Shown here: positions 1-12,204 of the stretch, piece after piece
How positions within the stretch are numbered: the first letter of the stretch is position 1
Layout of the letters: the number at the start of each line of letters is the position of its first letter
Assembly: GCA_039798065.1 (NCBI GenBank)
Contig: JBDKGS010000001.1
Coordinates: 1-61,341 of the forward strand
DNA length: 61,341 nt
DNA from: Fibrobacterota bacterium
Lineage (GTDB): Bacteria > Fibrobacterota > Fibrobacteria > UBA5070
Reading direction: 5' to 3'
Translations under genes and position numbers: made by a program
Notes under the pieces: model-generated
Seen by the model: the letters and a program-made list of their open reading frames with translations, nothing else
What the model was told of the DNA's origin: nothing
The model's database searches: none

Positions 1-408
1 CGAGATCAGCATCGGATACTCATTGAATTTAGTCAACGCTTGGTGGAATCATCTCAGGCGCTGCCTAAATTTGGTCCAGCATTAAATAAATTAATCAAGC
101 AGGTTGCAGAATTCATAAGCTTCGAAGCACATGGAGATGAGATAAAATATGTTGGGTGGTCATTCAAGTTGGGGAACATTACCGACGAAACGCGAGAAAT
201 CATCAAATTGGGTGCCGCATTTCAATACTTGGTTTGCGATCATCAAAGCTTGTCGTTAATTGATGAAGATACTGAAATTGAATTCGCAAATATAGTATGC
301 ACTTTCTATTGGATCCCAATGCGAAAAGGTGATCCGAAAAAGTTTACCATTGGCGAATTGCCAAGAGACTACACTAGGAAACAATTCAGCTTGCTTGGTG
401 ATCTATGA
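1..408 (+). CDS. 3' end of an unknown protein-coding gene, truncated by the window edge
   Basis: Frame 1 is open from nt 1 to TGA 406-408; the track entry 40..408 starts at an internal TTG. The stop overlaps the next start (ATGA 405-408). Low GC like the next two genes. No motif recognised. Confidence 0.45.
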   Translation, partial: RDQHRILIEFSQRLVESSQALPKFGPALNKLIKQVAEFISFEAHGDEIKYVGWSFKLGNITDETREIIKLGAAFQYLVCDHQSLSLIDEDTEIEFANIVCTFYWIPMRKGDPKKFTIGELPRDYTRKQFSLLGDL

Positions 409-1358
409 AAATTCAATTTAAAACGATAGATCCAAATACAATCAAGGTTGAAGACATAGATTTATTTGTTTGCGCAGTGGGGTACGAATCCAGGTCGACA
501 TACTCGTTGCAAAAACTGAGGCGGGCCGGATTATCTGATTCGAAATTACTTATTTTTGCGTTTCAAGATTGCGATACTGATGAATGCGCACGGAATAATT
601 TCTTATCGATTGGGATAGCTAGTGATAGCTGCCAAAAGGTCCCATATAGCGATTCTTCGATTGGGACGAACAAATTTGAATCTGAAGTTTTGCGATTGCA
701 AAGTGAAAAAATAGACAAGGGCATAACGATCCTAGTCGACTATTCTTCCATGCCTCGGTCGTTGTATTGTAAACTGCTGGAAAAAGTCTTTTCATTAAGG
801 CGACGCGATGATGTTTTTTGCTTCTCCTACTCGCACGGAGATTACTCGGGGACGCAACAGGCGCAAACAGCTGGTATTGATAGAATTGGACTCTATAGTG
901 GCACTCCACTACTAGATTCCGCTGGTGTTCGATCACATGTCATAGGACTAGGCTATGACTCGGAACGATCAAAAGCGTTGTATAGCTTCCTTGATCCACA
1001 GAATCTCTTTGTATGTTTTTCATACCCCAAGGGTAACGAGACCTTAAGACAAAATCTATACGAAATCAATGATGACGTACTCCAGGCAGCATCACATATC
1101 ACTCATTTATATGTTGATGACTTTGAAAGCATGATTGCGAAACTAACTGAGATTGTATTAGACTTACGGAAAGCAGGAACCGTAATTTTAGTTCCTGATG
1201 GACCAAAACCAGCGATTCTGGCCTTCTCAATACTGCCGTTAATCATACAAGCCAATGGCGTTACGTGCTTGAAAATTTACCGGCATGAAACGGCTTACCA
1301 TCGTGCCAACGTAATTCCAGACAAAAGGATATCGGGGTTTTTGGTGGAGCAATTTTGA
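405..1358 (+). CDS. hypothetical protein (317 aa), partner of the Dam-type methylase
   Basis: Uninterrupted ORF. ATGA overlap upstream and TTG/TGA overlap (1355-1358) downstream imply one operon. Low GC. Only a vague alternating beta/alpha (Rossmann-like) pattern; no catalytic motif I can name. Confidence 0.6.
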   Translation: MKIQFKTIDPNTIKVEDIDLFVCAVGYESRSTYSLQKLRRAGLSDSKLLIFAFQDCDTDECARNNFLSIGIASDSCQKVPYSDSSIGTNKFESEVLRLQSEKIDKGITILVDYSSMPRSLYCKLLEKVFSLRRRDDVFCFSYSHGDYSGTQQAQTAGIDRIGLYSGTPLLDSAGVRSHVIGLGYDSERSKALYSFLDPQNLFVCFSYPKGNETLRQNLYEINDDVLQAASHITHLYVDDFESMIAKLTEIVLDLRKAGTVILVPDGPKPAILAFSILPLIIQANGVTCLKIYRHETAYHRANVIPDKRISGFLVEQF

Positions 1359-2176
1359 ATCCATCAAGTGGAGCCCCGCAATCATTTTTGCGCTGGCCTG
1401 GTGGAAAGCGTTGGGCAGTGAATATTATTACGCCAATTATTCATGGTATAAAATTTGAACGGTATATAGAGCCGTTCATCGGCGGAGGGAGTATATTTTT
1501 TTCTGTTCACCCTCGGGAAGCAATAATTTCTGATTTGAATACAGACCTAATTGCTACATATAAAGCAGTCAAATCCAGCCCCGCAAAAGTACTTGATCAG
1601 CTTCGGCAACTTACATGCTCAAGGGAACAGTACAACGCTTTTCGAAACATGAGTCGATTGAAGAAGAATGTAGATATTGCTACTAGGTTCCTGTATCTAA
1701 ATCGAATGAGCTTCTCTGGAATGTATAGGGTAAACCTAAAAGGCGAATTTAATGTGCCATTTGGTGGAGATAGAGATCTAAGGACGCTGACAGAAAGCAA
1801 AATAATACAAAATGCGTCAAGGTGCTTAAAGGCAGCAGCTATTGAGTCTAGTGATTTTGAGGAAGTAATGGAACGAGCTAAGAAAGGCGATTTGGTATAT
1901 TGCGACCCGACATATACGGTCGCACACAATAATAATGGCTTTGTGAGATACAACGAAAAAGTCTTTCGGTGGGAAGATCAGCAGCGACTCGCAAAAGCAT
2001 GCCTACGAGCGAAAAAGCGCGGAGTAAAATTGATAATCTCTAATGCTGCGCATGAATCTGTCATTGAATTGTATCGAGATTTTTCTGAATGCCGAATTCT
2101 TGAGCGACCGACAAATATATCAGTCAAAATTCATGCGCGAAAAATTGTTTCAGAAGCCCTATTCATCGTCAAATAG
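1355..2176 (+). CDS. dam: D12-class (Dam family) N6-adenine DNA methyltransferase
   Basis: N-terminal FLRWPGGKRW, SAM-binding EPFIGGGSIFF (FxGxG) and catalytic DPPY-variant CDPTYTV, in the order typical of Dam-like enzymes. TTG start inferred. Target sequence unknown. Confidence 0.9.
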   Translation: MNPSSGAPQSFLRWPGGKRWAVNIITPIIHGIKFERYIEPFIGGGSIFFSVHPREAIISDLNTDLIATYKAVKSSPAKVLDQLRQLTCSREQYNAFRNMSRLKKNVDIATRFLYLNRMSFSGMYRVNLKGEFNVPFGGDRDLRTLTESKIIQNASRCLKAAAIESSDFEEVMERAKKGDLVYCDPTYTVAHNNNGFVRYNEKVFRWEDQQRLAKACLRAKKRGVKLIISNAAHESVIELYRDFSECRILERPTNISVKIHARKIVSEALFIVK

Positions 2177-2349
2177 CCTTAGTCAGCATGAAATTATTGA
2201 ACACCATTTACACCAAACCAGTCCCTACGCCGACGCCGCCGTTTCGACTCCGTAGTTCGCCCGTTGATTGCTCGCCTACAGGCGGCACAGGATTGGATGG
2301 CGCTACGCTATGGCCCAGGAGCGTCTGGAGTCCCCCGTTTCATCGGATA

Positions 2350-2775
2350 TGAACATGCGGCAGAGGTGAGACAACGCGAATCGTGAGGAATCGCCTCGAA
2401 AGGCCGATAAATACTGGGTTTCCTTGTCTCACAACCCCGCCAAGACAAAAACCGGGCCAACGCTATCTCGGAAGCACGAAGGCGACTCTGTCTCAAAACC
2501 CCGCCAAAGCAGGGAATTCAACAGGTCTCGTTCGGAATCGATAAATGGGCTGTAAAATGCCATTCCATGCAGTTTGAACGGGATTTTGAGCTGTGAAAGA
2601 GCTCCGGCGTGTCCGCCAGCTTTGTCCGCCTTGTCCGGCATCAAATTGGAATTTTGCGGAGACGATCAGCTGGACAGTCGAGCATTTAAGCCTTTATCCA
2701 GCAACGCTAAAACTGCTGGATTGTTCCTTTTGTCTCAAAACCCCGCCAATTTTGTCTCACCTGAGCCGCCCAACT
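2350..2775. repeat. cluster of TGTCTCA-core repeats: three 19-nt direct copies, one degenerate direct copy, one inverted copy
   Basis: TGTCTCACAACCCCGCCAA at 2425-2443, TGTCTCAAAACCCCGCCAA at 2489-2507 and at 2731-2749. TGTCTCACCTGAGCCGC at 2753-2769. Its inverted partner GCGGCAGAGGTGAGACA at 2357-2373 matches 15 of 17 nt. The region is a convergent intergenic gap with no credible ORF. Confidence 0.8.
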
Positions 2776-2795
2776 ACAGGCACATCACACCAAGC

Positions 2796-3151
2796 TCACA
2801 GATCCGCCGAATCGATCCCGACTGTCGTCAGCAACCACGAAAGATCGACTGGATCCCGTTTCTGGAACTTTGCCATGCGGGCTTCGTTCAGCTGACACTC
2901 GCGCACCCAGTCCAGCACAGCTTCCCGCCCTTTAGCAGACCTCACGCACTGCCGCGGGGACTTGTTTTCCAGGACCGGGATCGGTGTGTCCGGCCACTCC
3001 CGGTAGGTCGAGCGGTACACCGCGTCGATCACCTCTGGTGTCATCGGAAGAGGCCCAGCTTCACTGCCCGATCCTCCTTCGTCTGTCTTTCCAAGCTCCT
3101 GGGTCATGTCCACGATCTTGCGTGACCGGAAGCGGAGCAGGTCGCCCATGT
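2796..3151 (-). pseudogene. C-terminal fragment of a SEC-C-motif protein gene disrupted by IS66 insertion
   Basis: ORF 2796..3149 begins MGDLL. Its first codons lie in the 8-bp target duplication, so it continues the reading frame of 5453..6457 (..KWLKAHMG|DLLRFRS..) once the IS is removed. Confidence 0.85.
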
Positions 3152-3230
3152 GTAACCGCTCGGTGATCCCCTCTTACTCCGTCCCCGCTTGATTTTGAGG
3201 CTTCCGTAGTCCACTACTTCGGAGGTCGAT

Positions 3231-3401
3231 ATGTCACCGATTCCATCCCACCACCAGCTGATCCATATCCAGCGTTGGCTCTCCAGTTCCAGCGCTTTAC
3301 GCAATCGATTGCGCCAACAGCTTCTCGCCCCTGTCACCGCGAAACGTCATACTCCATTGTTCCAAGAGTTACTCGTTGATTGGGATGACTCGTCATGCTG
3401 A
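3231..3401 (+). CDS. short IS66 accessory ORF (orf1/TnpA position), 56 aa
   Basis: Below the track length cut-off. ATG at 3231 is preceded by GGAGG (3221-3225). Stop TGA 3399-3401 overlaps the tnpB start (ATGCTGA). Translation read by hand: MSPIPSHHQLIHIQRWLSSSSALRNRLRQQLLAPVTAKRHTPLFQELLVDWDDSSC. Much shorter than usual IS66 Orf1. Confidence 0.4.
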   Translation: MSPIPSHHQLIHIQRWLSSSSALRNRLRQQLLAPVTAKRHTPLFQELLVDWDDSSC

Positions 3402-3751
3402 GCCCCTCGAATCTTCGGGTTTTCGTTTGCAGCGAGCCCGCCGACATGCGCAAGTCGTTCGATGGCTTGTCGGGATTGTGCCGCGAATTCCTCGGACAAG
3501 ATCCGTCAAGCGGCCAGGTTTTCGTGTTCTTCAATCGTCGCCGCGACCAGGTCAAAGCGCTATGGTGGGATAACTCTGGCTTTGCGATTTGGTACAAGCG
3601 CTTGGAATCGGGCCGATTCCATTTTGGGCCCCACAAGGGCGTGATCAGCCAAGCGGAGCTTGCGATGATCCTGGAGGGGATCGAGATCAGAAATGTTCGT
3701 CGCTTCAAGCGATTTCGACTACAAAACAACGAAGCGCAATGCTCGAATTGA
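3395..3751 (+). CDS. tnpB: IS66 family Orf2 (TnpB-IS66) accessory protein
   Basis: 118 aa with the conserved IS66 Orf2 signature DMRKSFDGLSGL..VFVFFNRRRDQVKALWWD..GFAIWYKRLE. Confidence 0.9.
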   Translation: MLSPSNLRVFVCSEPADMRKSFDGLSGLCREFLGQDPSSGQVFVFFNRRRDQVKALWWDNSGFAIWYKRLESGRFHFGPHKGVISQAELAMILEGIEIRNVRRFKRFRLQNNEAQCSN

Positions 3752-3787
3752 TCAGTATTTATCGAACTTTCGAGGTAAATTGTATCG

Positions 3788-5407
3788 GTGTCGAAGACCG
3801 CTTCCAAAAAGCGCAATGCGCCGGAATCTGTCGCTTCGGAGAAGCTGTCCATCGACGCGATTCTCCAGCAGAATTCCGCCCTGAAAGAGCGCAACCGTTA
3901 CCTGGCCGAACAACTGGAATTACTCAAGCGCCACATTTTCGGCCACCGCTCCGAGAAGCTGCCGGCATCGCTGGATCCTGCATCGGCGATGGATCTGTTC
4001 GGATCCGAAGTGGTTGCGGTTTCTGTCGAAACCGTCCCGGTCCACGCTCACGAGCGCACCACAAGTCCCAAGGGGCATGGCCGCGCGGTGTTGCCCGAAA
4101 ACCTTCCGTGCGAAGAGATCGAACTGGACGTGCCCGATTCGGAGAAGATCTGTCCCTGCTGTGGCAAGGATCGAGTCTGCATCGGAGCTGATTCACGCGA
4201 TGAGCTGGACATCATTGCTCCCCAGTTTATCAAGCGCCGCTACATCCGTCCCAAGTACGCTTGCCGCACCTGCACCGAATGCGGCGTGGTGCAGGCCGAG
4301 CCCGCCATGTGCGTGATCGACAAGGGTATCCCCAGTGCAAATCTTGTCGTGTGGATCGTGCTGGCCAAGTACCTCGATCACCTGCCATTGTATCGGATCG
4401 CCAACCAGTTCAAACGCTGGGGCGTCGAGATCGCCGAAACGACCATGGTCGGGTGGATCGCGTCCGTGTTCGAACTGTTGGGGCCGATTCATCTAGCGTT
4501 GGAGCACGAAATCAAGACCTGCGGATGCCTGCATGTGGACGAGACCACCTTGCGGGTACAGCGAGGCGAAAAGGACAAGCTCGGGTTGGGCAAGGCCAGC
4601 ACCGACTTCCTATGGGCCATGCTTGGGCGAAAACCAGATGGAACGCCGCTTGGCGTGTCCTTCCATTACGCCGATGGCCGACAGCATGCCGTGGCGCGTG
4701 CATTGTTGGATGGTGTGACAGGAGTTGTCGTTAGCGATGGGTATGGAGCCTATGACCAGCCATGCGGTGACGACAAGGGAATCGTCCATGCCGCTTGTTG
4801 GGCGCATGCGCGCCGCAAGTTTCACGAAGCGCGCCAGTGCGGCCACACGGAGGCTGATCAGCCACTGAAGCGGATCGCCAAACTTTACAAGGCGCACCAG
4901 CGAATCGATCTCTTCGCAGTAGGTCTGCTCCGTCGATCCAGACATTTTGGACAAGAACTGACGCAGTCGGAAATTGACGCCATCATCGTTGATCGGCGTC
5001 GCAAATGGATGAAGCCGGTGGTCGATGGGATCAAGAACTGGAATGATCAGACACGCATGAGCGCTTTGCCCAAAGGGCATATGGGCAAGGCAGTCCGATA
5101 TTTCGACAACCAGTATCCGAGACTGGTGAAGTTTCTCGAACATGCGCGGGTGGATCTGGACAACAACATCATCGAGCGCTCGATCCGGCCGATCGCCATC
5201 GGCCGCAAGAACTGGATGGTCGCAGGAAGCGAAGACGGAGCCGAGCGCGCCGCCCTGCTGATGTCACTGATCGGAACCTGTCGCATGCTTGGAATCGACC
5301 CCACCGCGTATTTTTGCGACGTGCTACTGCGGGTTAGGATGAGACCAAAGAACGCCGATTGCGCCGACCTCACGCCTGACAAATGGATGACGGCGCGGGC
5401 AAACTAG
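3788..5407 (+). CDS. IS66 family DDE transposase (TnpC)
   Basis: 539 aa. N-terminal leucine-zipper-like LKERNRYLAEQLELLKRHIFG, CPCCG..C..C zinc-finger-like segment, and catalytic-region motifs HVDETTLRV, VSDGYGAY, CWAHARRKF. GTG start inferred. Confidence 0.93.
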   Translation: MSKTASKKRNAPESVASEKLSIDAILQQNSALKERNRYLAEQLELLKRHIFGHRSEKLPASLDPASAMDLFGSEVVAVSVETVPVHAHERTTSPKGHGRAVLPENLPCEEIELDVPDSEKICPCCGKDRVCIGADSRDELDIIAPQFIKRRYIRPKYACRTCTECGVVQAEPAMCVIDKGIPSANLVVWIVLAKYLDHLPLYRIANQFKRWGVEIAETTMVGWIASVFELLGPIHLALEHEIKTCGCLHVDETTLRVQRGEKDKLGLGKASTDFLWAMLGRKPDGTPLGVSFHYADGRQHAVARALLDGVTGVVVSDGYGAYDQPCGDDKGIVHAACWAHARRKFHEARQCGHTEADQPLKRIAKLYKAHQRIDLFAVGLLRRSRHFGQELTQSEIDAIIVDRRRKWMKPVVDGIKNWNDQTRMSALPKGHMGKAVRYFDNQYPRLVKFLEHARVDLDNNIIERSIRPIAIGRKNWMVAGSEDGAERAALLMSLIGTCRMLGIDPTAYFCDVLLRVRMRPKNADCADLTPDKWMTARAN

Positions 5408-5452
5408 AAAGGCGATCACCTCAACAAAAAGAGGGGATCACCGAGCGGTTAC

Positions 5453-6457
5453 GCCCATGTGTGCCTTCAGCCACTTCCGGTTATCCGCTGCGGCGAGCCG
5501 ACTCCGGGACTCCAGGATCAGCACATCGCCGTCCAGGGTGAGCTTGGCCAAGCTGCGAATCACCCCGGTATCCGTCGACTGCACGCGATTCCACTCGGTC
5601 TGGAAATCGTTCATGGGCTCGATGTCCTTGATCCCAAAAAGCGACCGCCGAATCCCCTTGAGATCCAGCACAGTGAACCGGTCCATCACCAGCTCCAGCG
5701 GCGCGCGACTTGCACCATCGACGATGCGGATTTTGGGCGGAATCGCAACCTTGCGCAAGTACTGACGCAGGAACTCGCGCTCCAGTGCCAAGGCGGCTTC
5801 ACGGAGAGCGCTCTCGCTCTTGGAGGTGGACCGAAACTGGGCCAGAAGCTGCTTGGCCTCCTTGCGGTCGGCCCGAAAAATCGAGGAGACCGTGGGCTCG
5901 GCGGCATCGTACACGACGCGCGCCGCCAGCACATCGAAGTGCAGCACCTGGGTGGAGGCGCTGATCTCCGCGACTTCGATCAGATCCCCACGTGGCGAGT
6001 TCAGCGGGACAAGGCCGATGAACTTCCCCACGGACACCGACTGGACCTCCCAGAACCGAAGCGGATGTAACGCCAACTGTTGCACATTCGCCAGCTGCTC
6101 CCGAGACAAGCGGTGACCGAAACGCTCCGCAAGTCCGCAGCGCGCGAGCTCAGCAAGCATGCACTCCTGCACACCGACCAGCAGGCCAGAAAGCTCTTCG
6201 GGGTTGGCCTCGCCGAATCGCGCAAGCCCTTGCCGTACTTCCGAATCATCGATGATCGAGTCGAAGAAGCGCCCGGTCTCTTCCGGCATCCACTTGGGTG
6301 CGGACTCGATCAGCTGTTCGACCTGGCGGCCGTTAACGTAGTCCGGATGCTCGTTCGCTGGAGCCGTTGCCAACCCGTGCTTCTGGTCGGCGGCCATGCA
6401 GCATTTCTTGTACTTGTTCCCGCTGCCACAAGGGCATGGATCGTTTCGACCTGGCAT
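5453..6457 (-). pseudogene. N-terminal fragment of the SEC-C-motif protein gene disrupted by IS66 insertion
   Basis: Starts MPGRNDPCPCGSGNKYKKCC (canonical SEC-C metal-binding motif). The frame runs into the IS right end and stops after 4 IS-encoded codons (VTAR). The reconstructed gene would encode about 450 aa. Confidence 0.85.
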
Positions 6458-6844
6458 CGTTTGGCTCCGTCCCTTTCGAGTGACGCACGGGCGAAAATAG
6501 CACGGAGAAGTGCTTCACGGATGAATCAGCCGCTACTCCTCGGTGCGCCTAGCCAAACCCTCTGGACCTCCGCGGACACCTGGATTACCTGGGCCCATCG
6601 GGCCTACCAGCGAAAGTGGTTCAGGGGGGTCCACCGACGTAAAATGCCCGGTGGACACCGGAAACATCGTTTCAATCACTGCTGACCCGGGTCCACCACC
6701 AAGTGCAATTCATGAGGTTTGTGATCAGCAAAGACGAGACAACTTGAAGTGTCGCACGAACAATCTTCGCCAAAACAAGCTGAGGACTCGCTCATCCATC
6801 TATATATTGATTCTCATTCTCATACTTTGAAACAGGAGACAACC

Positions 6845-7186
6845 ATGAACAACGACGCAACGCCACTCCTTCAAACCGTTAACGGTGCCGTCTACCCGAT
6901 GTCCAGCGGAGCCCGCGTTTTGCTTGGATTCGACGGCGCCTGGATGGCCCTCACCCGCGAGCAGTTGACCGGTGTCGGCAACACCCTGGCCAACATCCTG
7001 AACTGCCCGTTCAAGCACCATCACCTCGAAGCCGGCATGCTGTTGCGCTCCAAGGACGGCGCCCATCGGTTGCCGCTGACCGAGGATTCCGCCAAGGAGC
7101 TGCACGGCCTGATCAACGACACGCTCCTGCTCTTGGAGGCTGAGTCGGCGTTGGCCGATGCATTTCCCGCCACCGCTGTGGAGTGA
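6845..7186 (+). CDS. hypothetical protein (113 aa)
   Basis: ATG at 6845 preceded by AGGAGA (6834-6839); the longer track ORF starts upstream in an AT-rich spacer. No motif recognised. Confidence 0.5.
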   Translation: MNNDATPLLQTVNGAVYPMSSGARVLLGFDGAWMALTREQLTGVGNTLANILNCPFKHHHLEAGMLLRSKDGAHRLPLTEDSAKELHGLINDTLLLLEAESALADAFPATAVE

Positions 7187-7280
7187 CACCGGCGCAGGCA
7201 TTCGGTGGTTGCGGCGTCGCCAAACCACCACCACTCGACAATCTTGCCAATCACAACCACCAGATCTAGTATTCCCCCAA

Positions 7281-7480
7281 GCAGGTGCCCGTCGACCAGA
7301 AGCGTTGCTTTCGGTCTTGGAACGGGAGAATCGGGAAGTCCGGTGGGGAGGGTTACCTCTGATTCCGGCGCGGACCCGCCACCGTGACCGGGGACCTTGA
7401 ACGCAAATCCACTGAAGCCACAAAACTTCGGGAAGGCGCGTCGAAGGGGTGATCCGGGAGCCGGGAGACCGGCCTGCTGC
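7281..7480 (+). promoter_or_regulatory. cobalamin (B12) riboswitch in the nrdDG leader
   Basis: Conserved core GGGAAGTCCGGTG..ATTCCGGCGCGGACCCGCCACCGTGA (about 7333-7386). B12 box AGCCGGGAGACCGGCC (7459-7474). P1-like pairing GCAGG (7281-7285) with CCTGC (7473-7477). Located 107 nt upstream of the nrdD ATG. Confidence 0.8.
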
Positions 7481-7586
7481 AGGAACGCGGCCCTCGGGAT
7501 ATAGGGTCTCGCGCATTGGTGGAATGCCTCGGCATCCCGCCTTGTGGGTCGCGCCTGCTCATCGTCCTCCAGGCGGAGATCCCGGA

Positions 7587-9797
7587 ATGAACCAGACAAC
7601 CAACCACCTCGCCACAGCCACACCGCTTCCGTTTCCGCGCATCCGCAAACGCGACGGACAGATCGTCGAATTCGAGGCATCCCACATCGCTCGCGCCATC
7701 GCCAAGGCGGGACTGGCCACCGGCGAGTTCGATGAAGCCTCCTCACGGCGCCTCACCCTCAAGGTTCTCGCCCTGCTACCGTCAGCCGTTACCGACGCGG
7801 TTCCCACCGTCGAAGAGGTCCAGGACCTGGTCGAGGAAGTGCTGCTGGCCTCGCCGTTTCGGAAGACTGCCAAGGCCTACATCCTGTACCGCGACCAGCA
7901 CACCAAGCTGCGCGAGATCCGCGACCGCGCCAGCATCGATCTGGTCGACGGCTACCTGCGCAAACTCGATTGGCAGGTGCGCGAGAACTCGAACATGAGT
8001 TACTCGCTGCAGGGGCTCAACAACTACATCGCCAGTGCAGTCAGCCAGACCTACTGGCTGAACTCCATCTACACCCCCGAGATCCGCAACGCCCACGAGT
8101 CCGGCGAGCTGCACCTGCATGACCTGAACCAGCTCTCGGTGTACTGCGTGGGCTGGGATCTGCACGACCTGCTTTCCCAGGGTTTTCAAGGCGTCTCCGG
8201 CAAGGCGGAAGCGCGACCAGCCCGCCACCTGCGCACCGCTCTGGGGCAGATCGTGAACTTCTTCTACACACTCCAGGGCGAAGCCGCCGGGGCCCAGGCG
8301 TTTTCCAGCTTCGACACGCTGCTGGCTCCATTCATCCGCGCTGATGGACTCGACTACACCCAAGTCAAGCAGGCTCTGCAGGAGTTCGTCTTCAACATCA
8401 ACGTGCCCACGCGCGTGGGCTTCCAGACCCCGTTCACCAACGTCACCCTGGACCTGGTCTGCCCCGAGCACTTCGCCAGCCAGCCGGTGGTCATCGGAGG
8501 CGAGCTCCAAAGTCTGACCTATGGCGAGCACCAGGCGGAAATGGACCTTTTCAACCGGGCTTTCTTCGAGGTCATGAGCGAGGGCGACGCCAAAGGACGC
8601 GTCATGACCTTCCCCATCCCCACCATCAACCTGACCAAAGGGTTCGACTGGGACAACCCAGCCTGGAAGGGCCTTTGGGAGATGACCGGGCGTTACGGGA
8701 TCCCCTACTTCTCGAACTTCATCCATTCCGACCTCGATCCGTCCGACGCACGCTCCATGTGCTGCCGGCTGCGCATCGACAACACGCAATTGGAACGCCG
8801 CGGCGGCGGCCTCTTCGGCGCACACCCCCTGACAGGTTCTGTCGGCGTGGTCACGTTGAATCTGCCACGGGCCGCACACCAAGCTTTTGTCGAAGCCCAT
8901 GATCAACCGGCCCGGATCGCCGAATTCCGACGCATCCTGGAAGCACGGATGGAGGTCGCACGCGAGAGCTTGGAGATCAAGCGCAAGTTCCTGGAGCGAC
9001 TCACCGACTCCGGTCTGTTCCCGTACACCAGCTTCTACCTGCGCCACATGCGCGAACGTTTCGGTTGCTACTGGAAGAACCATTTCAGCACCATCGGGAT
9101 CGTCGGCATGAACGAAGCCTGCGAGAACATGGGGCTCGGCGGCATCGGCTCCGAGGCCGGGCACCGCTTCGCTCGGGAGACCCTGGATTTCATGCGTCAG
9201 ATTCTGACACGCTTCCAGGAAGAAACCGGCAACCTGTACAACCTGGAAGCCACCCCGGCCGAAGGCACCAGTTACCGGCTCGCCCGCAAGGACAAGACCG
9301 ACCTACCACGGATCCAGGTCGCCAACGAACAGGCGGTTCGCGAAGAGGGTGCCGCACCGTACTACACCAACTCCTCGCACCTTCCCGTCGATTTCACCAA
9401 CGACCTCTTCGAAGCATTGGAACACCAGGACGATCTGCAGACACGCTACACCGGCGGGACGGTCCTGCACCTGTACCTGGGCGAGCGGGTCTCCGATCCC
9501 GACGCGGTCAAGGACCTGGTGCGCACGATCGCCAACGGTTACCGGATGCCGTACTTCTCGCTCACGCCCACGTTCAGCGTGTGTCCCGAGCACGAATACA
9601 TCGCCGGCGAACATCCGAGCTGCCCCGTGTGTGCACGCACGAGCGAAGTCTATTCCCGTGTAGTCGGTTACCTCCGACCGGTCCAGCAATGGAACGAAGG
9701 GAAACAATCCGAATTCGCAGCTCGGCGCGCCTACCAGATGCCCGAAGGAAGTGAATCGGAAACCGCATTCCGGACCTCCTGCCCGCAGCCCGCGTGA
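7587..9797 (+). CDS. nrdD: anaerobic (class III) ribonucleoside-triphosphate reductase
   Basis: 736 aa from the ATG at 7587 (GGAG at 7575-7578). N-terminal ATP-cone (IRKRDGQIVEFEASHIARAI..KAYILYRDQH). C-terminal Zn ribbon CPEH..CPVC followed by glycyl-radical motif SRVVGYLRP. GTGA overlap with nrdG. Confidence 0.93.
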   Translation: MNQTTNHLATATPLPFPRIRKRDGQIVEFEASHIARAIAKAGLATGEFDEASSRRLTLKVLALLPSAVTDAVPTVEEVQDLVEEVLLASPFRKTAKAYILYRDQHTKLREIRDRASIDLVDGYLRKLDWQVRENSNMSYSLQGLNNYIASAVSQTYWLNSIYTPEIRNAHESGELHLHDLNQLSVYCVGWDLHDLLSQGFQGVSGKAEARPARHLRTALGQIVNFFYTLQGEAAGAQAFSSFDTLLAPFIRADGLDYTQVKQALQEFVFNINVPTRVGFQTPFTNVTLDLVCPEHFASQPVVIGGELQSLTYGEHQAEMDLFNRAFFEVMSEGDAKGRVMTFPIPTINLTKGFDWDNPAWKGLWEMTGRYGIPYFSNFIHSDLDPSDARSMCCRLRIDNTQLERRGGGLFGAHPLTGSVGVVTLNLPRAAHQAFVEAHDQPARIAEFRRILEARMEVARESLEIKRKFLERLTDSGLFPYTSFYLRHMRERFGCYWKNHFSTIGIVGMNEACENMGLGGIGSEAGHRFARETLDFMRQILTRFQEETGNLYNLEATPAEGTSYRLARKDKTDLPRIQVANEQAVREEGAAPYYTNSSHLPVDFTNDLFEALEHQDDLQTRYTGGTVLHLYLGERVSDPDAVKDLVRTIANGYRMPYFSLTPTFSVCPEHEYIAGEHPSCPVCARTSEVYSRVVGYLRPVQQWNEGKQSEFAARRAYQMPEGSESETAFRTSCPQPA

Positions 9798-10390
9798 GAA
9801 TCGGAGGCTACGAGAAAACGTCGCTGGTCGACTTTCCGGGTCGGGTGGCGGCGGTGGTGTTCACTCAGGGCTGCAACTTCCGCTGTCCATGGTGTCACAA
9901 CCGACAGTTGGTCGAGCCAAGGGCGTTCGGCCCGCCGATTCCTGTCGATGACATTTTCCGGCATTTGGGTGGCCGCGTGGGAAAACTCTCCGGGGTGGTC
10001 GTGACCGGCGGAGAGCCCACCCTTCAGCCCAACCTGGAGTCGTTTCTTGCACGCCTGTGCGCACTCGGTTTCGCGACCAAGCTGGACACCAACGGCTCGA
10101 ACCCGGCTGTCGTTCAAAAGCTTCTGGACCGTGCGCTGATCGACTTCGTGGCTGTGGATCTCAAGGCGCCATGGTCGCGTTACCGCGAAGCGTGCGGGGT
10201 GCGGGTCGACACCAGGGCTGTTCAGGAAACCATCCAACTTCTGCGTGCGCAACGCATCCCGCACCATCTGCGTACCACCGATTGGGCGGAGTTCGCTCCC
10301 GGGGAGCGCGAGGAGATCGAAGCGATTGCTGGCGGATCAACCTTGGTCTGGCAAACCTTCCGCGCAGTCCATCTCCAAACCTGTGGCTGA
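9794..10390 (+). CDS. nrdG: anaerobic ribonucleotide reductase activating protein (radical SAM)
   Basis: CNFRCPWCHN (CxxxCxxC radical-SAM cluster) near the N-terminus, GGEPTL motif, about 200 aa, immediately downstream of nrdD. Confidence 0.9.
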   Translation: MRIGGYEKTSLVDFPGRVAAVVFTQGCNFRCPWCHNRQLVEPRAFGPPIPVDDIFRHLGGRVGKLSGVVVTGGEPTLQPNLESFLARLCALGFATKLDTNGSNPAVVQKLLDRALIDFVAVDLKAPWSRYREACGVRVDTRAVQETIQLLRAQRIPHHLRTTDWAEFAPGEREEIEAIAGGSTLVWQTFRAVHLQTCG

Positions 10391-10449
10391 AAACACCAGG
10401 CACAGCCCATTCGGGTGCTCGAAGGGCTGTGTCGCCACGGAACCATCGA

Positions 10450-10743
10450 TCAAGTCGAGCTTGAATCTTCCGGAAGCGCCGCGAGAATCCGAGTCCACTT
10501 GTCCACCAGGAGATCGATCCTTTCCGTCAACACCTGCACATGTTCCACCAACTCTCGATCCTGCTGGCGACGCCGATGACGTAACTCCGCTTCCAGAGCC
10601 TCATCCGAAAGCAAGCTCAAGCCCTCATGAGCCTCCAGGTGTCGACGAAGATCCAACCGCTCCTCGAGTGTCGTGGTCGATGGTACCGTTTGCTGCTCCA
10701 GGACTTCCTGGGGCTGTTCTGCAATGGGCGTGGTGTCGTGCAT
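10450..10743 (-). CDS. small helical hypothetical protein (97 aa), LSxEExxAELxRR-motif family
   Basis: ATG at 10743 preceded by AAGGAG. Predicted coiled-coil composition. Shares a motif with ORFs 12214..12711 and 13690..13869. Confidence 0.55.
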   Translation of the reverse strand: MHDTTPIAEQPQEVLEQQTVPSTTTLEERLDLRRHLEAHEGLSLLSDEALEAELRHRRRQQDRELVEHVQVLTERIDLLVDKWTRILAALPEDSSST

Positions 10744-10944
10744 CTTCGCTCTCCTTGTTGAGGGATACGAAGAATTGCGGCATCGTAAAGCACCCTGAAG
10801 ACACCGCCGTCGCGGCGGCGTGAACAGCCGCCCCGAACCGGCACGCACTCTCCCTAGCGCCAACGCAGACCAGAATTTCTTGCTTTCAAGCACGACTCCG
10901 CCAAACACCCCGGTGATGAATCATCCAATCATCGGAGCCTCGCT

Positions 10945-12204
10945 ATGAAGCTCGCACAAATCCGCATCCTGCTTCCCCTCGCCTTTTTGACTTGTGCAGC
11001 TGCAAACGCAGCACTCGATACAAACGTCGTCCGGGCACAGCTTCCGGCACCCCGCCCGCTCATCGCCGTCGGCCACCCCGTCGACTGGTGGTTCGTCTTC
11101 AAATTCAACTCCGCCAAGTTTCCGGGGTGCGCAGGAGTCGCACAGCAGGCATGTGTGTTCGGCGGATCCGTCCAAGAGGGAAAGAAGTACAGCCAACAGT
11201 TCGTCTACGCCAGCAGCACGAACCCAGCCCTGCACGAAGGGGGCACCTGCCTCGGCAATGACACAATCCAGGATCCCCTGGGTGCAACCTTCGAGCAGGT
11301 CTACTCAGGCGGCTACAACTACCTCACCTGGAACGACCAGTTCTACAAGGATCCGCCCATCCATGGGTGCGGCAACTCCTGCAGCGCACCTTGGGGACAC
11401 TCCAAAGGCCTGGTGGCCTGGAACGACAGCGGCGTTGGATTCGTGTTACAGGTTTCGACACCATCGTGGCCGGCATCTGCGAGCAAGGACCATCCGCGCG
11501 CAACTGACGGAAACACCCTCGGATGTATCAGGGACAACAACATCCGCCTCAGCCAGCATTTCTTCGCGCTCAGGCTCACCAAGGATGACCTCGTGCTTAC
11601 GCTCCGGGGCATCCAGAACGCCAGCGTGGCCACAGATCCAAGCAACCCCCAGATCGCGCGGAACGGCGGGCCCGAGGATGTGCAGAAGCTCGTCCAAAGC
11701 CTGGGCCAGAAGTCCAGCTCGCACACAGCAACGCACACCATGCTTTCCACAGGCGTGGAGCTGATCTCCAAGCCATCGCAGCTGCATGTACCACCCTGGC
11801 AGATGGTGTCTTCGATCCTGAGTGGGGTGCCGCTGCGTACGGCCAACTGGTGGAATCGCACGTCCATTCCAACAACGACAACCGAAACCCCGATCGGCTG
11901 CTGGGACTCAACCTTGGACAAGCCTGGTGCGGTCGAGATCGCAACCACAGGCCGATGGAACACGGTCCGTTTCAGCCTCAAGGGCGGCCCCAGTGGGAAT
12001 AACAACCACGCCAAGATCGGAGTGTCCATCGACTCCGTGCACGCGTACACGATCTTCGGTGACATGAATCAGCAAGGCGCATTGTCCGGGCCGGATTGCA
12101 ACAGCAGCCAAGATGGTCGCGGCGGGCTGTTCTTCGTGGTCAGCAACCCCACCCTTCATCAGAGCGTGCAGGAACTGATCACCGGCGACACCGCGGATCC
12201 TTGA
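10945..12204 (+). CDS. secreted deoxyribonuclease II (DNase II, PLD-superfamily) homologue
   Basis: Signal peptide MKLAQIRILLPLAFLTCAAANA. Two HxK motifs in DNase II context: WGHSKGLVAWNDSGVGFVLQVSTPSWPA (compare human [26 protein letters not shown], recalled from memory) and NNHAKIGVS..FGDMNQQG..DGRGG (compare DHSKW..GDMNRNQGEEQRGGG). Confidence 0.85.
   Translation: MKLAQIRILLPLAFLTCAAANAALDTNVVRAQLPAPRPLIAVGHPVDWWFVFKFNSAKFPGCAGVAQQACVFGGSVQEGKKYSQQFVYASSTNPALHEGGTCLGNDTIQDPLGATFEQVYSGGYNYLTWNDQFYKDPPIHGCGNSCSAPWGHSKGLVAWNDSGVGFVLQVSTPSWPASASKDHPRATDGNTLGCIRDNNIRLSQHFFALRLTKDDLVLTLRGIQNASVATDPSNPQIARNGGPEDVQKLVQSLGQKSSSHTATHTMLSTGVELISKPSQLHVPPWQMVSSILSGVPLRTANWWNRTSIPTTTTETPIGCWDSTLDKPGAVEIATTGRWNTVRFSLKGGPSGNNNHAKIGVSIDSVHAYTIFGDMNQQGALSGPDCNSSQDGRGGLFFVVSNPTLHQSVQELITGDTADP

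Follow-up and report, generated by a model that had tools for sequence, protein, structure and literature searches.

The first 2,176 nucleotides of a 61,341-nucleotide stretch of DNA from a Fibrobacterota bacterium (GenBank assembly GCA_039798065.1, contig JBDKGS010000001.1; the window, meaning the whole stretch analyzed) hold the downstream part of a small operon, or cassette, that joins a DNA methyltransferase to a predicted nucleotide sensor and an ATPase. Three overlapping plus-strand open reading frames (ORFs), already noted in a preliminary description of this DNA, are present here. The first (1-408) is open at its 5ʹ end and is the 3ʹ end of a gene for an ORC-CDC6-like AAA+ ATPase, encoding residues 454-588 of 588. 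The second (405-1358) encodes a protein of 317 amino acids (aa) that, by its PADLOC profile and its fold, is a tandem-CARF protein of the CARF6 family; the third (1355-2176), which begins with TTG, encodes a 273-aa enzyme that profiles place in the Dam family (D12, alpha-class) of N6-adenine DNA methyltransferases. The start codon of the CARF gene overlaps the ATPase stop codon (ATGA, 405-408), and that of the methylase gene overlaps the CARF stop codon (TTGA, 1355-1358). Guanine plus cytosine (GC) content is 0.38-0.44 over positions 1-2200 (about 41%, versus 55-62% in the surrounding DNA) and 0.51-0.64 beyond, with the step at approximately 2180-2250, in agreement with the AT-richer DNA and the change near 2200 described previously. 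The right edge of this low-GC island, where the GC fraction rises from approximately 0.41 to more than 0.5, is placed at 2177-2250.

Contig C1 of the genome (G000, 81.6% complete) begins with the window, and the preliminary description had supposed that the cassette was cut by the window edge and that more genes might belong to it. Leftward extension bore this out, recovering both the remainder of the ATPase gene and a gene for a phosphoesterase. The 317-aa protein is found letter for letter on seven metagenome contigs, the longest of which, L002 (119.6 kb), is 100% identical to window positions 1-11358 and also, in reverse orientation, to bases 1-9544 of contig C11 from this genome. The 5ʹ part of the ATPase gene occupies C11:1-1307, and together with the phosphoesterase gene it occupies C11:1-2542 (both on the reverse strand); 52 bases between C11 and the window contig are absent from the assembly. 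Because L002 is identical to both contigs, the assembly break lies inside the first gene of the window and only these 52 bases are lost. Read on L002, the operon consists of a 412-aa metallophosphoesterase gene (7003-8241), which is first and lies off the window, followed by the genes for the 588-aa ATPase (8238-10004), the 317-aa CARF protein (10001-10954) and the 273-aa methylase (10951-11772), with a 4-nucleotide overlap at all three junctions. The low-GC stretch covers approximately L002:6950-11780, its left edge falling just before the phosphoesterase start at 7003. The island edges therefore match the outer genes, and the island consists of exactly four genes (approximately 4.8 kb).

Cassette DNA is present in freshwater and groundwater metagenomes from several studies. 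In one freshwater metatranscriptome run, three contigs of 151-161 nucleotides are at least 99% identical to the cassette, all within the CARF gene; since DNA carry-over is possible and the remaining cassette is uncovered in that run, they give no more than a weak hint and do not amount to evidence of expression. A scan for promoters and terminators returned no more sites than in shuffled sequence.

The four proteins of the cassette

The preliminary description found no recognizable match for the two proteins upstream of the methylase, which did not hold: both match catalogued families, PF24389 for the ATPase and CARF6 for the 317-aa protein. The latter has no Pfam or NCBIfam match, and it matches the PADLOC model PDLC01921 (CARF6) with an E value of 1.2e-75 over residues 14-314 of 317, as well as nine more CARF6 models. 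Its AlphaFold 2 (AF2) model, built from 25 homologues, has a mean confidence (pLDDT) of 92.4 and folds into two Rossmann-like halves that form a pseudo-dimer in one chain. In a wide structural search with VIA-align, the top match is Can1 (6sce; Z 12.2, root-mean-square deviation 3.7, 229 residues over 18-300), the type III CRISPR nuclease whose single chain carries two CARF domains; the CARF-like fold for which a search had been proposed was thereby found. Can2, Csm6ʹ, Cam1, Card1, Csa3 and Cdn1 match residues 174-300 at Z 9-12, and 15 of the 18 top structural matches are CARF proteins (Z 8.3-12.1 on residues 174-300). Foldseek against the PDB found no good global match, only tandem Rossmann proteins at TM 0.2-0.3, and a fold search of the Atlas gave only unnamed clusters. 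The CARF signature, [DN]-x-[ST]-xxx-[RK], follows core strand 4; in the 317-aa protein it reads D112-Y-S114-S-M-P-R118, and among 85 homologues its D, S, S and M are invariant while position 118 is R or K in all. The same homologues share further near-invariant motifs, namely G-Y-E28-x-R30, Y142, G-L-G183, N222 and G-P-K268.

The known role of CARF domains is to receive cyclic oligonucleotides that Cas10 or CD-NTases produce. No cyclase was found in the operon or among its recurrent neighbor genes, and no SMODS was found in the four cassette-bearing host genomes searched (G000 and G001-G003), a small sample that includes the 81.6%-complete G000. Cas10-palm matches in the tested hosts are weak and GGDEF-like, and the control rings in E. 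coli as well; in the 1.7-Mb Acholeplasmataceae chromosome (G002), which bears a full cassette, neither SMODS nor a Cas10 palm was found. The family itself is large, as an exhaustive CARF6 profile search returned 2,752 clusters (1,629 at E 1e-10). Nearly all of the 150 best listed clusters are 300-345 aa long. The 317-aa protein has no fused effector domain, and a search for longer, fused CARF6 forms found none, which is weak evidence by the tool's own account.

The ATPase fragment in the window matches PF24389 with an E value of 2.5e-7 (profile positions 453-570 of 571), and the full-length protein matches it at 1.2e-92 (residues 17-567 against profile positions 1-570 of 571). Its Walker A (G55-x-R-G-x-G-K-T62), Walker B (D237-E238, in DEAE) and G-N430-P-R432 motifs are invariant or nearly so in 30-59 homologues, and the GNPR motif is read here as a probable sensor 2 of the Cdc6 type (GDAR-type). 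Sequence and profile searches against solved structures returned P-loop matches only, the ESM Atlas only re-identified the family and the best PADLOC matches are weak and of P-loop type (mad8, E 7e-5). In RefSeq, a cassette ATPase of Pseudoalteromonas donghaensis (NZ_CP032091.1; L100:5238-6998) is labeled "EutP/PduV family microcompartment system protein" and carries a biogenic-amine Gene Ontology term, evidently a misannotation driven by the P-loop; other PGAP names for cassette proteins are "metallophosphoesterase" and "hypothetical protein."

Structure prediction supports, short of showing, that the ATPase binds the CARF protein. The modeled complex scores 0.81 in three runs versus 0.04 for the best of three controls. 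In the calibration, 58 of 80 solved complexes attained this mark, as did 2 of 110 mismatched pairs, although these counts are only rough for a model built on author-made alignments. The runs share at least 78% of contacts with a partner pLDDT of at least 84, and no solved relative of either chain was detected by sequence, which makes it unlikely that the model recalls a known complex. In the predicted contact, the linker between the two CARF domains (residues 155-176) packs against ATPase residues 94-104, 125-133 and 179-187 and touches Walker A (57-62). The predicted interface positions are variable in cassette-linked and solitary CARF proteins alike and do not separate the two groups. The 317-aa protein is accordingly described here as a predicted nucleotide-ligand sensor that would dock on the ATPase. 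The preliminary description had regarded both upstream proteins as effector or sensor candidates; the sensor assignment suits the 317-aa protein, whereas the first protein is better viewed as an ATPase switch, neither an effector nor a sensor in the usual sense, and the likely effector is encoded by the fourth gene, which that description could not see.

That fourth protein, the phosphoesterase, retains all five metallophosphoesterase motifs, with the D-x-H metal motif at residues 15-17, near the protein start. Its best named family is NCBIfam DS9_1, "anti-phage phosphoesterase" (E 6e-29), but its 101.3 bits stand against a cut-off of 420 and the match spans only positions 196-484 of 486, the catalytic (Cal) part, so that the cassette enzyme is not a DS9_1 member. 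NCBIfam ranks DS9_1 and CpdA above SbcD. The nearest folds to its model (pLDDT 83) are Lmo2642 (Z 26.0), Rv0805 (23.7), GpdQ (23.6) and SMPDL3B (21.6), with SMPDL3A also among them, versus Z 15-18 for Mre11/SbcD; at the level of sequence profiles, Lmo2642 is matched at E 4e-14 versus 1e-4 for SbcD. By predicted fold and by profile, the enzyme thus appears clearly nearer to cyclic-nucleotide and small-molecule phosphodiesterases than to Mre11/SbcD. The top Foldseek match of the model (E 1e-16) is chain B of 9a6c, in which the YydD-YydB complex from Bacillus subtilis was modeled integratively; this pair could be a tractable model for the phosphoesterase-ATPase half of the cassette if YydD is a related ATPase.

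The methylase is identified without ambiguity, as the preliminary description had it: it matches PF02086 at E 6e-46 (157.6 bits; cut-off 22), TIGR00571 "dam" at 207.7 bits (cut-off 114.85) and PADLOC MTase_II at E 2e-76. Its motif I is EPFIGGGS, and motif IV is DPTY in place of DPPY. Among 54 cassette methylases, motif IV is DPP[YF] in 47 and DPTY in five rows, which represent four distinct cassettes of one Desulfobacterota-type clade (L012 and L033 are the same contig and count as one). The cassettes that share DPTY with the window (L012/L033, L037 and L020) come from Desulfobulbaceae, Syntrophaceae and Desulfobacterales and encode CARF proteins only 31-36% identical to that of the window; its recurrence in such distant cassettes makes DPTY a retained feature of the clade rather than a fresh lesion. 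A seemingly shorter methylase in L004 reflects only another choice of start codon, as the DNA is identical. The window methylase is the only D12 methylase found in its genome (81.6% complete), and no member of the DpnII family was found there.

Distribution, variants and surroundings

The same four genes occur together in relatives whose CARF proteins are 24-36% identical to that of the window. A pattern scan of 185,579 species genomes yielded 100 relatives, of which 80 loci were fetched and 58 had enough flanking sequence for their gene content to be scored with hidden Markov models built from five cassettes. The fetched loci come from at least ten phyla, including Bacillota, Bacteroidota, Desulfobacterota, Pseudomonadota, Planctomycetota, Acidobacteriota, Verrucomicrobiota, Nitrospirota and Chloroflexota. 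All four genes are present in 43 of the 58 loci, in three arrangements: the methylase is first in 33, last on the same strand in seven and last on the opposite strand in three. The methylase alone is missing from one locus, another is a remnant and the remaining 13 hold a solitary CARF gene. No recurrent fifth gene was found in 54 loci. Pairwise identities of the phosphoesterase, ATPase and CARF protein correlate at r 0.94-0.96, the methylase tracks the other three at r of approximately 0.8 (Mantel 0 of 2000) and catalytic motifs are intact in all cassette partners. A search of 40 relatives, nine of which belong to the same genus, did not recover the CARF gene, and in the phylum of the window PF24389 occurs in 2 of 296 genomes. 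The four-gene operon is a horizontal acquisition.

The cassette without a methylase belongs to Pseudoalteromonas. P. maricaloris has its own Dam (303.7 bits) on another contig, and its phosphoesterase gene is split into two ORFs. A methylase-less cassette in a Dam-positive host fits a need for Dam-type methylation that the host can supply, in this one genus.

Within the phylum sample, PF24389 occurs in just one further gene, which belongs to a different genome of the same class and to an array of four genes that is laid out like the cassette but built from different parts (L104:2925-7725; G145:C60). This sister system encodes a methylase, a PRTase-CE protein, an ATPase and a CARF6 protein (E 2e-47). 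Its methylase is of the beta-class N6_N4 type with SPPF as motif IV, a form typical of N4-cytosine methylases. The effector slot holds PRTase-CE (PF24390; PADLOC "PRTase_III-A," listed as a type III-A CRISPR-associated PRTase); the array is flanked by an MmeI-type restriction-modification enzyme, and thyX follows it. As the sister system keeps the ATPase and CARF6 and swaps the rest, these two form a constant core, and effector and methylase are exchangeable. The swap argues that the phosphoesterase is the effector and that the effectors act on nucleotides, not DNA, while the change of methylase class argues that methylation as such matters, not specifically adenine methylation.

These observations bear on whether the cassette could be a strict restriction-modification-like system, in which the methylase protects self DNA, the phosphoesterase is a nuclease like Mre11/SbcD, the ORC/Cdc6-like ATPase is loaded onto unmethylated DNA or moves along it and the CARF protein is a mere modulator. 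The methylase is indeed tightly coupled to and co-inherited with its partners, Mre11 and SbcD share the metallophosphoesterase fold (Z 15-18), and ATPases of the ORC/Cdc6 clade are DNA-binding, with BREX pairing its own member, BrxC, with a methylase (PMC12839542). Nevertheless, such a system is improbable here. The phosphoesterase is closer to nucleotide and small-molecule phosphodiesterases both by fold (Z 22-26) and by profile, and the sister system replaces it with PRTase-CE, which is not a DNase family. Moreover, searches with Pfam, NCBIfam and PADLOC detected no restriction endonuclease family (PD-(D/E)xK, HNH, PLD or GIY-YIG) in any cassette protein, and the 81.6%-complete genome yielded no DpnII-type enzyme.

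The 13 solitary CARF6 genes form a distant Bacteroidota branch (23-27% identity) that lacks the ATPase, phosphoesterase and methylase yet retains every pocket motif of the cassette CARF proteins. In the loci inspected (L048:7992-8963 and L053:7950-8903), the gene lies between a beta-lactamase-family gene and the genes for 2-oxoacid dehydrogenase E2/E1, a syntenic housekeeping setting. This possible housekeeping relative could aid identification of the ligand. Its conserved neighborhood, together with the regulatory role of Dam methylation in some bacteria, would suit a host nucleotide-signaling or epigenetic regulatory module with no part in conflict. For the cassette itself, such a role is hardly credible: it is patchy over at least ten phyla and absent from close relatives, and its foreign composition, defense-type neighbors and swapped effectors set it apart. 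All of these traits are hallmarks of accessory conflict systems rather than of housekeeping regulation.

Across hosts, the cassette neighbors GmrSD, Mrr, HNH and NERD proteins, an MmeI-type restriction-modification enzyme and insertion sequence (IS) elements, and a serine recombinase lies upstream of it in five Bacillota loci. Along with the low GC content, the IS neighbors and these recombinases would be expected of counter-defense genes or selfish cargo of a mobile element, for which Dam would shield incoming DNA from GATC-specific restriction, the phosphodiesterase would destroy cyclic-nucleotide immune signals and the CARF protein would act as a sponge or ring nuclease. Cyclic-nucleotide phosphodiesterases are among the fold neighbors of the phosphoesterase (Rv0805, Lmo2642 and SMPDL3A), and CARF domains can degrade or sequester cyclic oligoadenylates, according to the titles of matched entries. 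Even so, cargo of this kind is very unlikely. A tblastn search of 50,697 phage records gave no match, and the sole plasmid match is to an 843-kb Pseudoalteromonas chromid. The cassette is a bare 4.8-kb chromosomal island with no constant mobile backbone, its large ATPase would be left unexplained and the adjacent IS66 element is a later, polymorphic insertion.

That element is complete (3152-5452), with TnpB at 3395-3751, a transposase at 3788-5407 and 24-bp perfect terminal inverted repeats, and it is bordered by an 8-bp target duplication, GCCCATGT, at 3144-3151 and 5453-5460. In a DNA contig from another groundwater sample, position 3153 is joined directly to 5463, an empty site which indicates that the insertion is recent and polymorphic. 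Its own target duplication and the empty site rule out IS66 as the vehicle of the cassette. IS66 splits a minus-strand SEC-C-motif gene into a 5ʹ part (6457-5438) and a 3ʹ part (3149-2796). Cassette and split gene are separated by 0.6 kb, within which lie three copies of a 20-nucleotide direct repeat, TTGTCTCAMAACCCCGCCAA (2424-2443, 2488-2507 and 2730-2749), with an inverted partner to part of the repeat nearby. In another sample, this gap differs by several single-nucleotide polymorphisms and by a 9-bp insertion after 2621. Directly upstream of the cassette, L002:229-6109 (corresponding to C11 of G000) carries on the minus strand of L002 an operon that encodes a 783-aa TerB_N/TerB/TerB_C protein, a 432-aa BrxC_BrxD-family ATPase and a 731-aa DEAD/Helicase_C protein; a SRAP gene comes after it. 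The operon resembles a further candidate conflict system within this island.

A candidate methylation-linked immune module

On balance, the cassette is probably a methylation-linked, nucleotide-targeting immune module, directed against phages or mobile elements, in which an ATPase-CARF switch controls a nucleotide-hydrolyzing effector. In this mechanism, the methyltransferase would mark the host's own DNA, probably at GATC, and so supply the mark by which the response is coupled to DNA state. The ATPase and the CARF protein would form a complex that serves as the sensing switch; DNA or cues of infection may engage the ATPase, and a small nucleotide ligand, with no dedicated cyclase as its maker, may engage the CARF pocket. 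The activated complex would then release the phosphoesterase to hydrolyze free or signaling nucleotides, not DNA, and replication of the invader would be halted in a response of the abortive-infection type. The preliminary description had proposed a methylase-linked defense or restriction-modification-like system. The first part fits a conserved mobile module built from immunity-type families, whose methylase is no orphan, while the second is not supported, as no restriction-type nuclease was found.

Several known systems invite comparison. PUA-Cal-HAD (DefensePredictor DS-9, from E. coli ECOR28) is a validated anti-phage system (PMC13092281, PMC12871103) that is triggered by Dam-derived N6-methyl-deoxyadenosine monophosphate (m6-dAMP) and whose Cal domain hydrolyzes dADP (PMC12871103). 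Like the cassette, it has a calcineurin-like phosphoesterase effector of the same sub-type, is tied functionally to adenine methylation of the Dam type and lacks a restriction nuclease; destruction of nucleotides is the expected outcome in both. The cassette differs in having no PUA domain and no HAD partner, and in having a separate ORC/Cdc6-like ATPase, a tandem-CARF protein and its own methylase. BREX is similar in its general logic (PMC12839542): it, too, has no classical nuclease and combines a methylase with an ATPase of the ORC/Cdc6 clade and a protein of phosphoesterase type. Unlike BREX, however, the cassette has a D12 Dam rather than PglX, a calcineurin-like enzyme rather than the alkaline-phosphatase-like PglZ and a 588-aa ATPase rather than the 1200-aa BrxC; it lacks BrxA, BrxB and BrxL and adds a CARF protein, and in a PADLOC scan none of its four proteins matches a BREX model. 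With the CARF proteins of type III CRISPR-Cas systems (Can1, Can2/Card1, Csm6, Cam1 and Csa3), the 317-aa protein shares the fold and signature, and with Can1 the two-CARF arrangement, but it has no fused effector, is partnered by an AAA+ ATPase and is encoded with no cyclase in the operon or anywhere in at least one complete host chromosome.

By analogy with these systems, two models may be entertained: the ATPase could read the mark on DNA, as in BREX, or the CARF protein could read it as a released methylated nucleotide, as in PUA-Cal-HAD. In the latter case, the methylase would serve to barcode the host chromosome, not to protect DNA. Breakdown of host DNA by a phage would release methylated nucleotides, such as m6-dAMP or short m6A oligonucleotides, to bind the CARF pocket, which would take the role of the PUA domain and switch on the ATPase-phosphoesterase pair to deplete nucleoside and deoxynucleoside triphosphates. 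Such a methylome-derived danger signal is unlikely but is the main rival to the favored proposal. The nearest named relative of the effector is DS-9A, a PUA-Cal protein, and Calcineurin-CE effectors are linked to N6A methylases without restriction enzymes (PMC12871103). Furthermore, CARF domains bind small nucleotides, yet the operon holds no cyclase; no SMODS was found in G000 and G001-G003, nor a Cas10 palm in the G002 chromosome. The cassette supplies the only D12 methylase found in its genome, and the cassette that lacks one sits in a Dam-positive host. However, the sister methylase has SPPF while the CARF6 pocket motifs are invariant, and the solitary Bacteroidota CARF6 has the same motifs with no methylase beside it; given a pocket that stays invariant when the methylase differs or is absent, a ligand tuned to a particular methyl mark is not the simplest reading. 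Nor is the ORC-like ATPase given a clear role. Invariance of the pocket across methylase classes and the solitary branch mildly favors the model in which the ATPase reads the mark on DNA and the ligand of the CARF protein is a common nucleotide. It is correspondingly doubtful that a tandem-CARF protein without a cyclase reads a nucleotide derived from methylated DNA, or another breakdown or metabolic nucleotide, and licenses the phosphoesterase by docking beside the ATPase P-loop.

The proposal of an immune module has considerations against it as well. No experimental work on any cassette member was found in the literature searched, and the ligand, the cue for the ATPase and the substrate of the effector are all putative. 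Activity of the window methylase, with its DPTY motif IV, is a prediction. The phosphoesterase falls well below the DS9_1 cut-off (101 versus 420 bits) and comes with neither a PUA domain nor a HAD partner. In addition, the defense-island context was judged from a handful of loci without statistics, PADLOC models CARF6 proteins and defines no system from them, and the occurrence of solitary CARF6 proteins with the same motifs in a housekeeping context means that the fold is not restricted to immunity.

The cassette is not wholly novel, as its component families are already catalogued in PADLOC and Pfam. The window proteins are clear members of PADLOC-DB v2 CARF6 (PDLC01910-01925) and of Pfam PF24389, but these entries cover single proteins, and the two libraries give neither a four-gene system nor a function. 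The adjacent accessions of PF24389 and PF24390 (PRTase-CE) suggest one curation source. The CARF6 and PF24389 families are believed to stem from the CARF classification of Makarova et al. (2020) and from the work of Nicastro et al. (2023) on Calcineurin-CE. A literature search, whose reach did not extend to those two papers, found no paper describing the cassette, and part or all of it may already have been predicted computationally.

What the cassette adds is a CARF family of approximately 2,750 clusters in many phyla that is joined to a methylase, an ATPase and exchangeable nucleotide-targeting effectors, with no cyclase seen. The identity of the ligand would reveal either a new input to CARF signaling or a new, nuclease-free coupling of DNA methylation to immunity. 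The question is directly testable, as the cassette is small (4.8 kb, four genes), has clear catalytic residues and offers a natural contrast set of methylase-first, methylase-last and methylase-less forms with Cal or PRTase effectors. Should the CARF protein prove to read a nucleotide from methylated DNA, the methylase would be making a future alarm signal rather than protecting DNA. The principle of the methylome as a danger barcode, carried by m6-dAMP, would then extend from PUA domains to the CARF superfamily, and the cassette would represent the first CARF pathway independent of CRISPR or of CBASS-type second-messenger synthesis.

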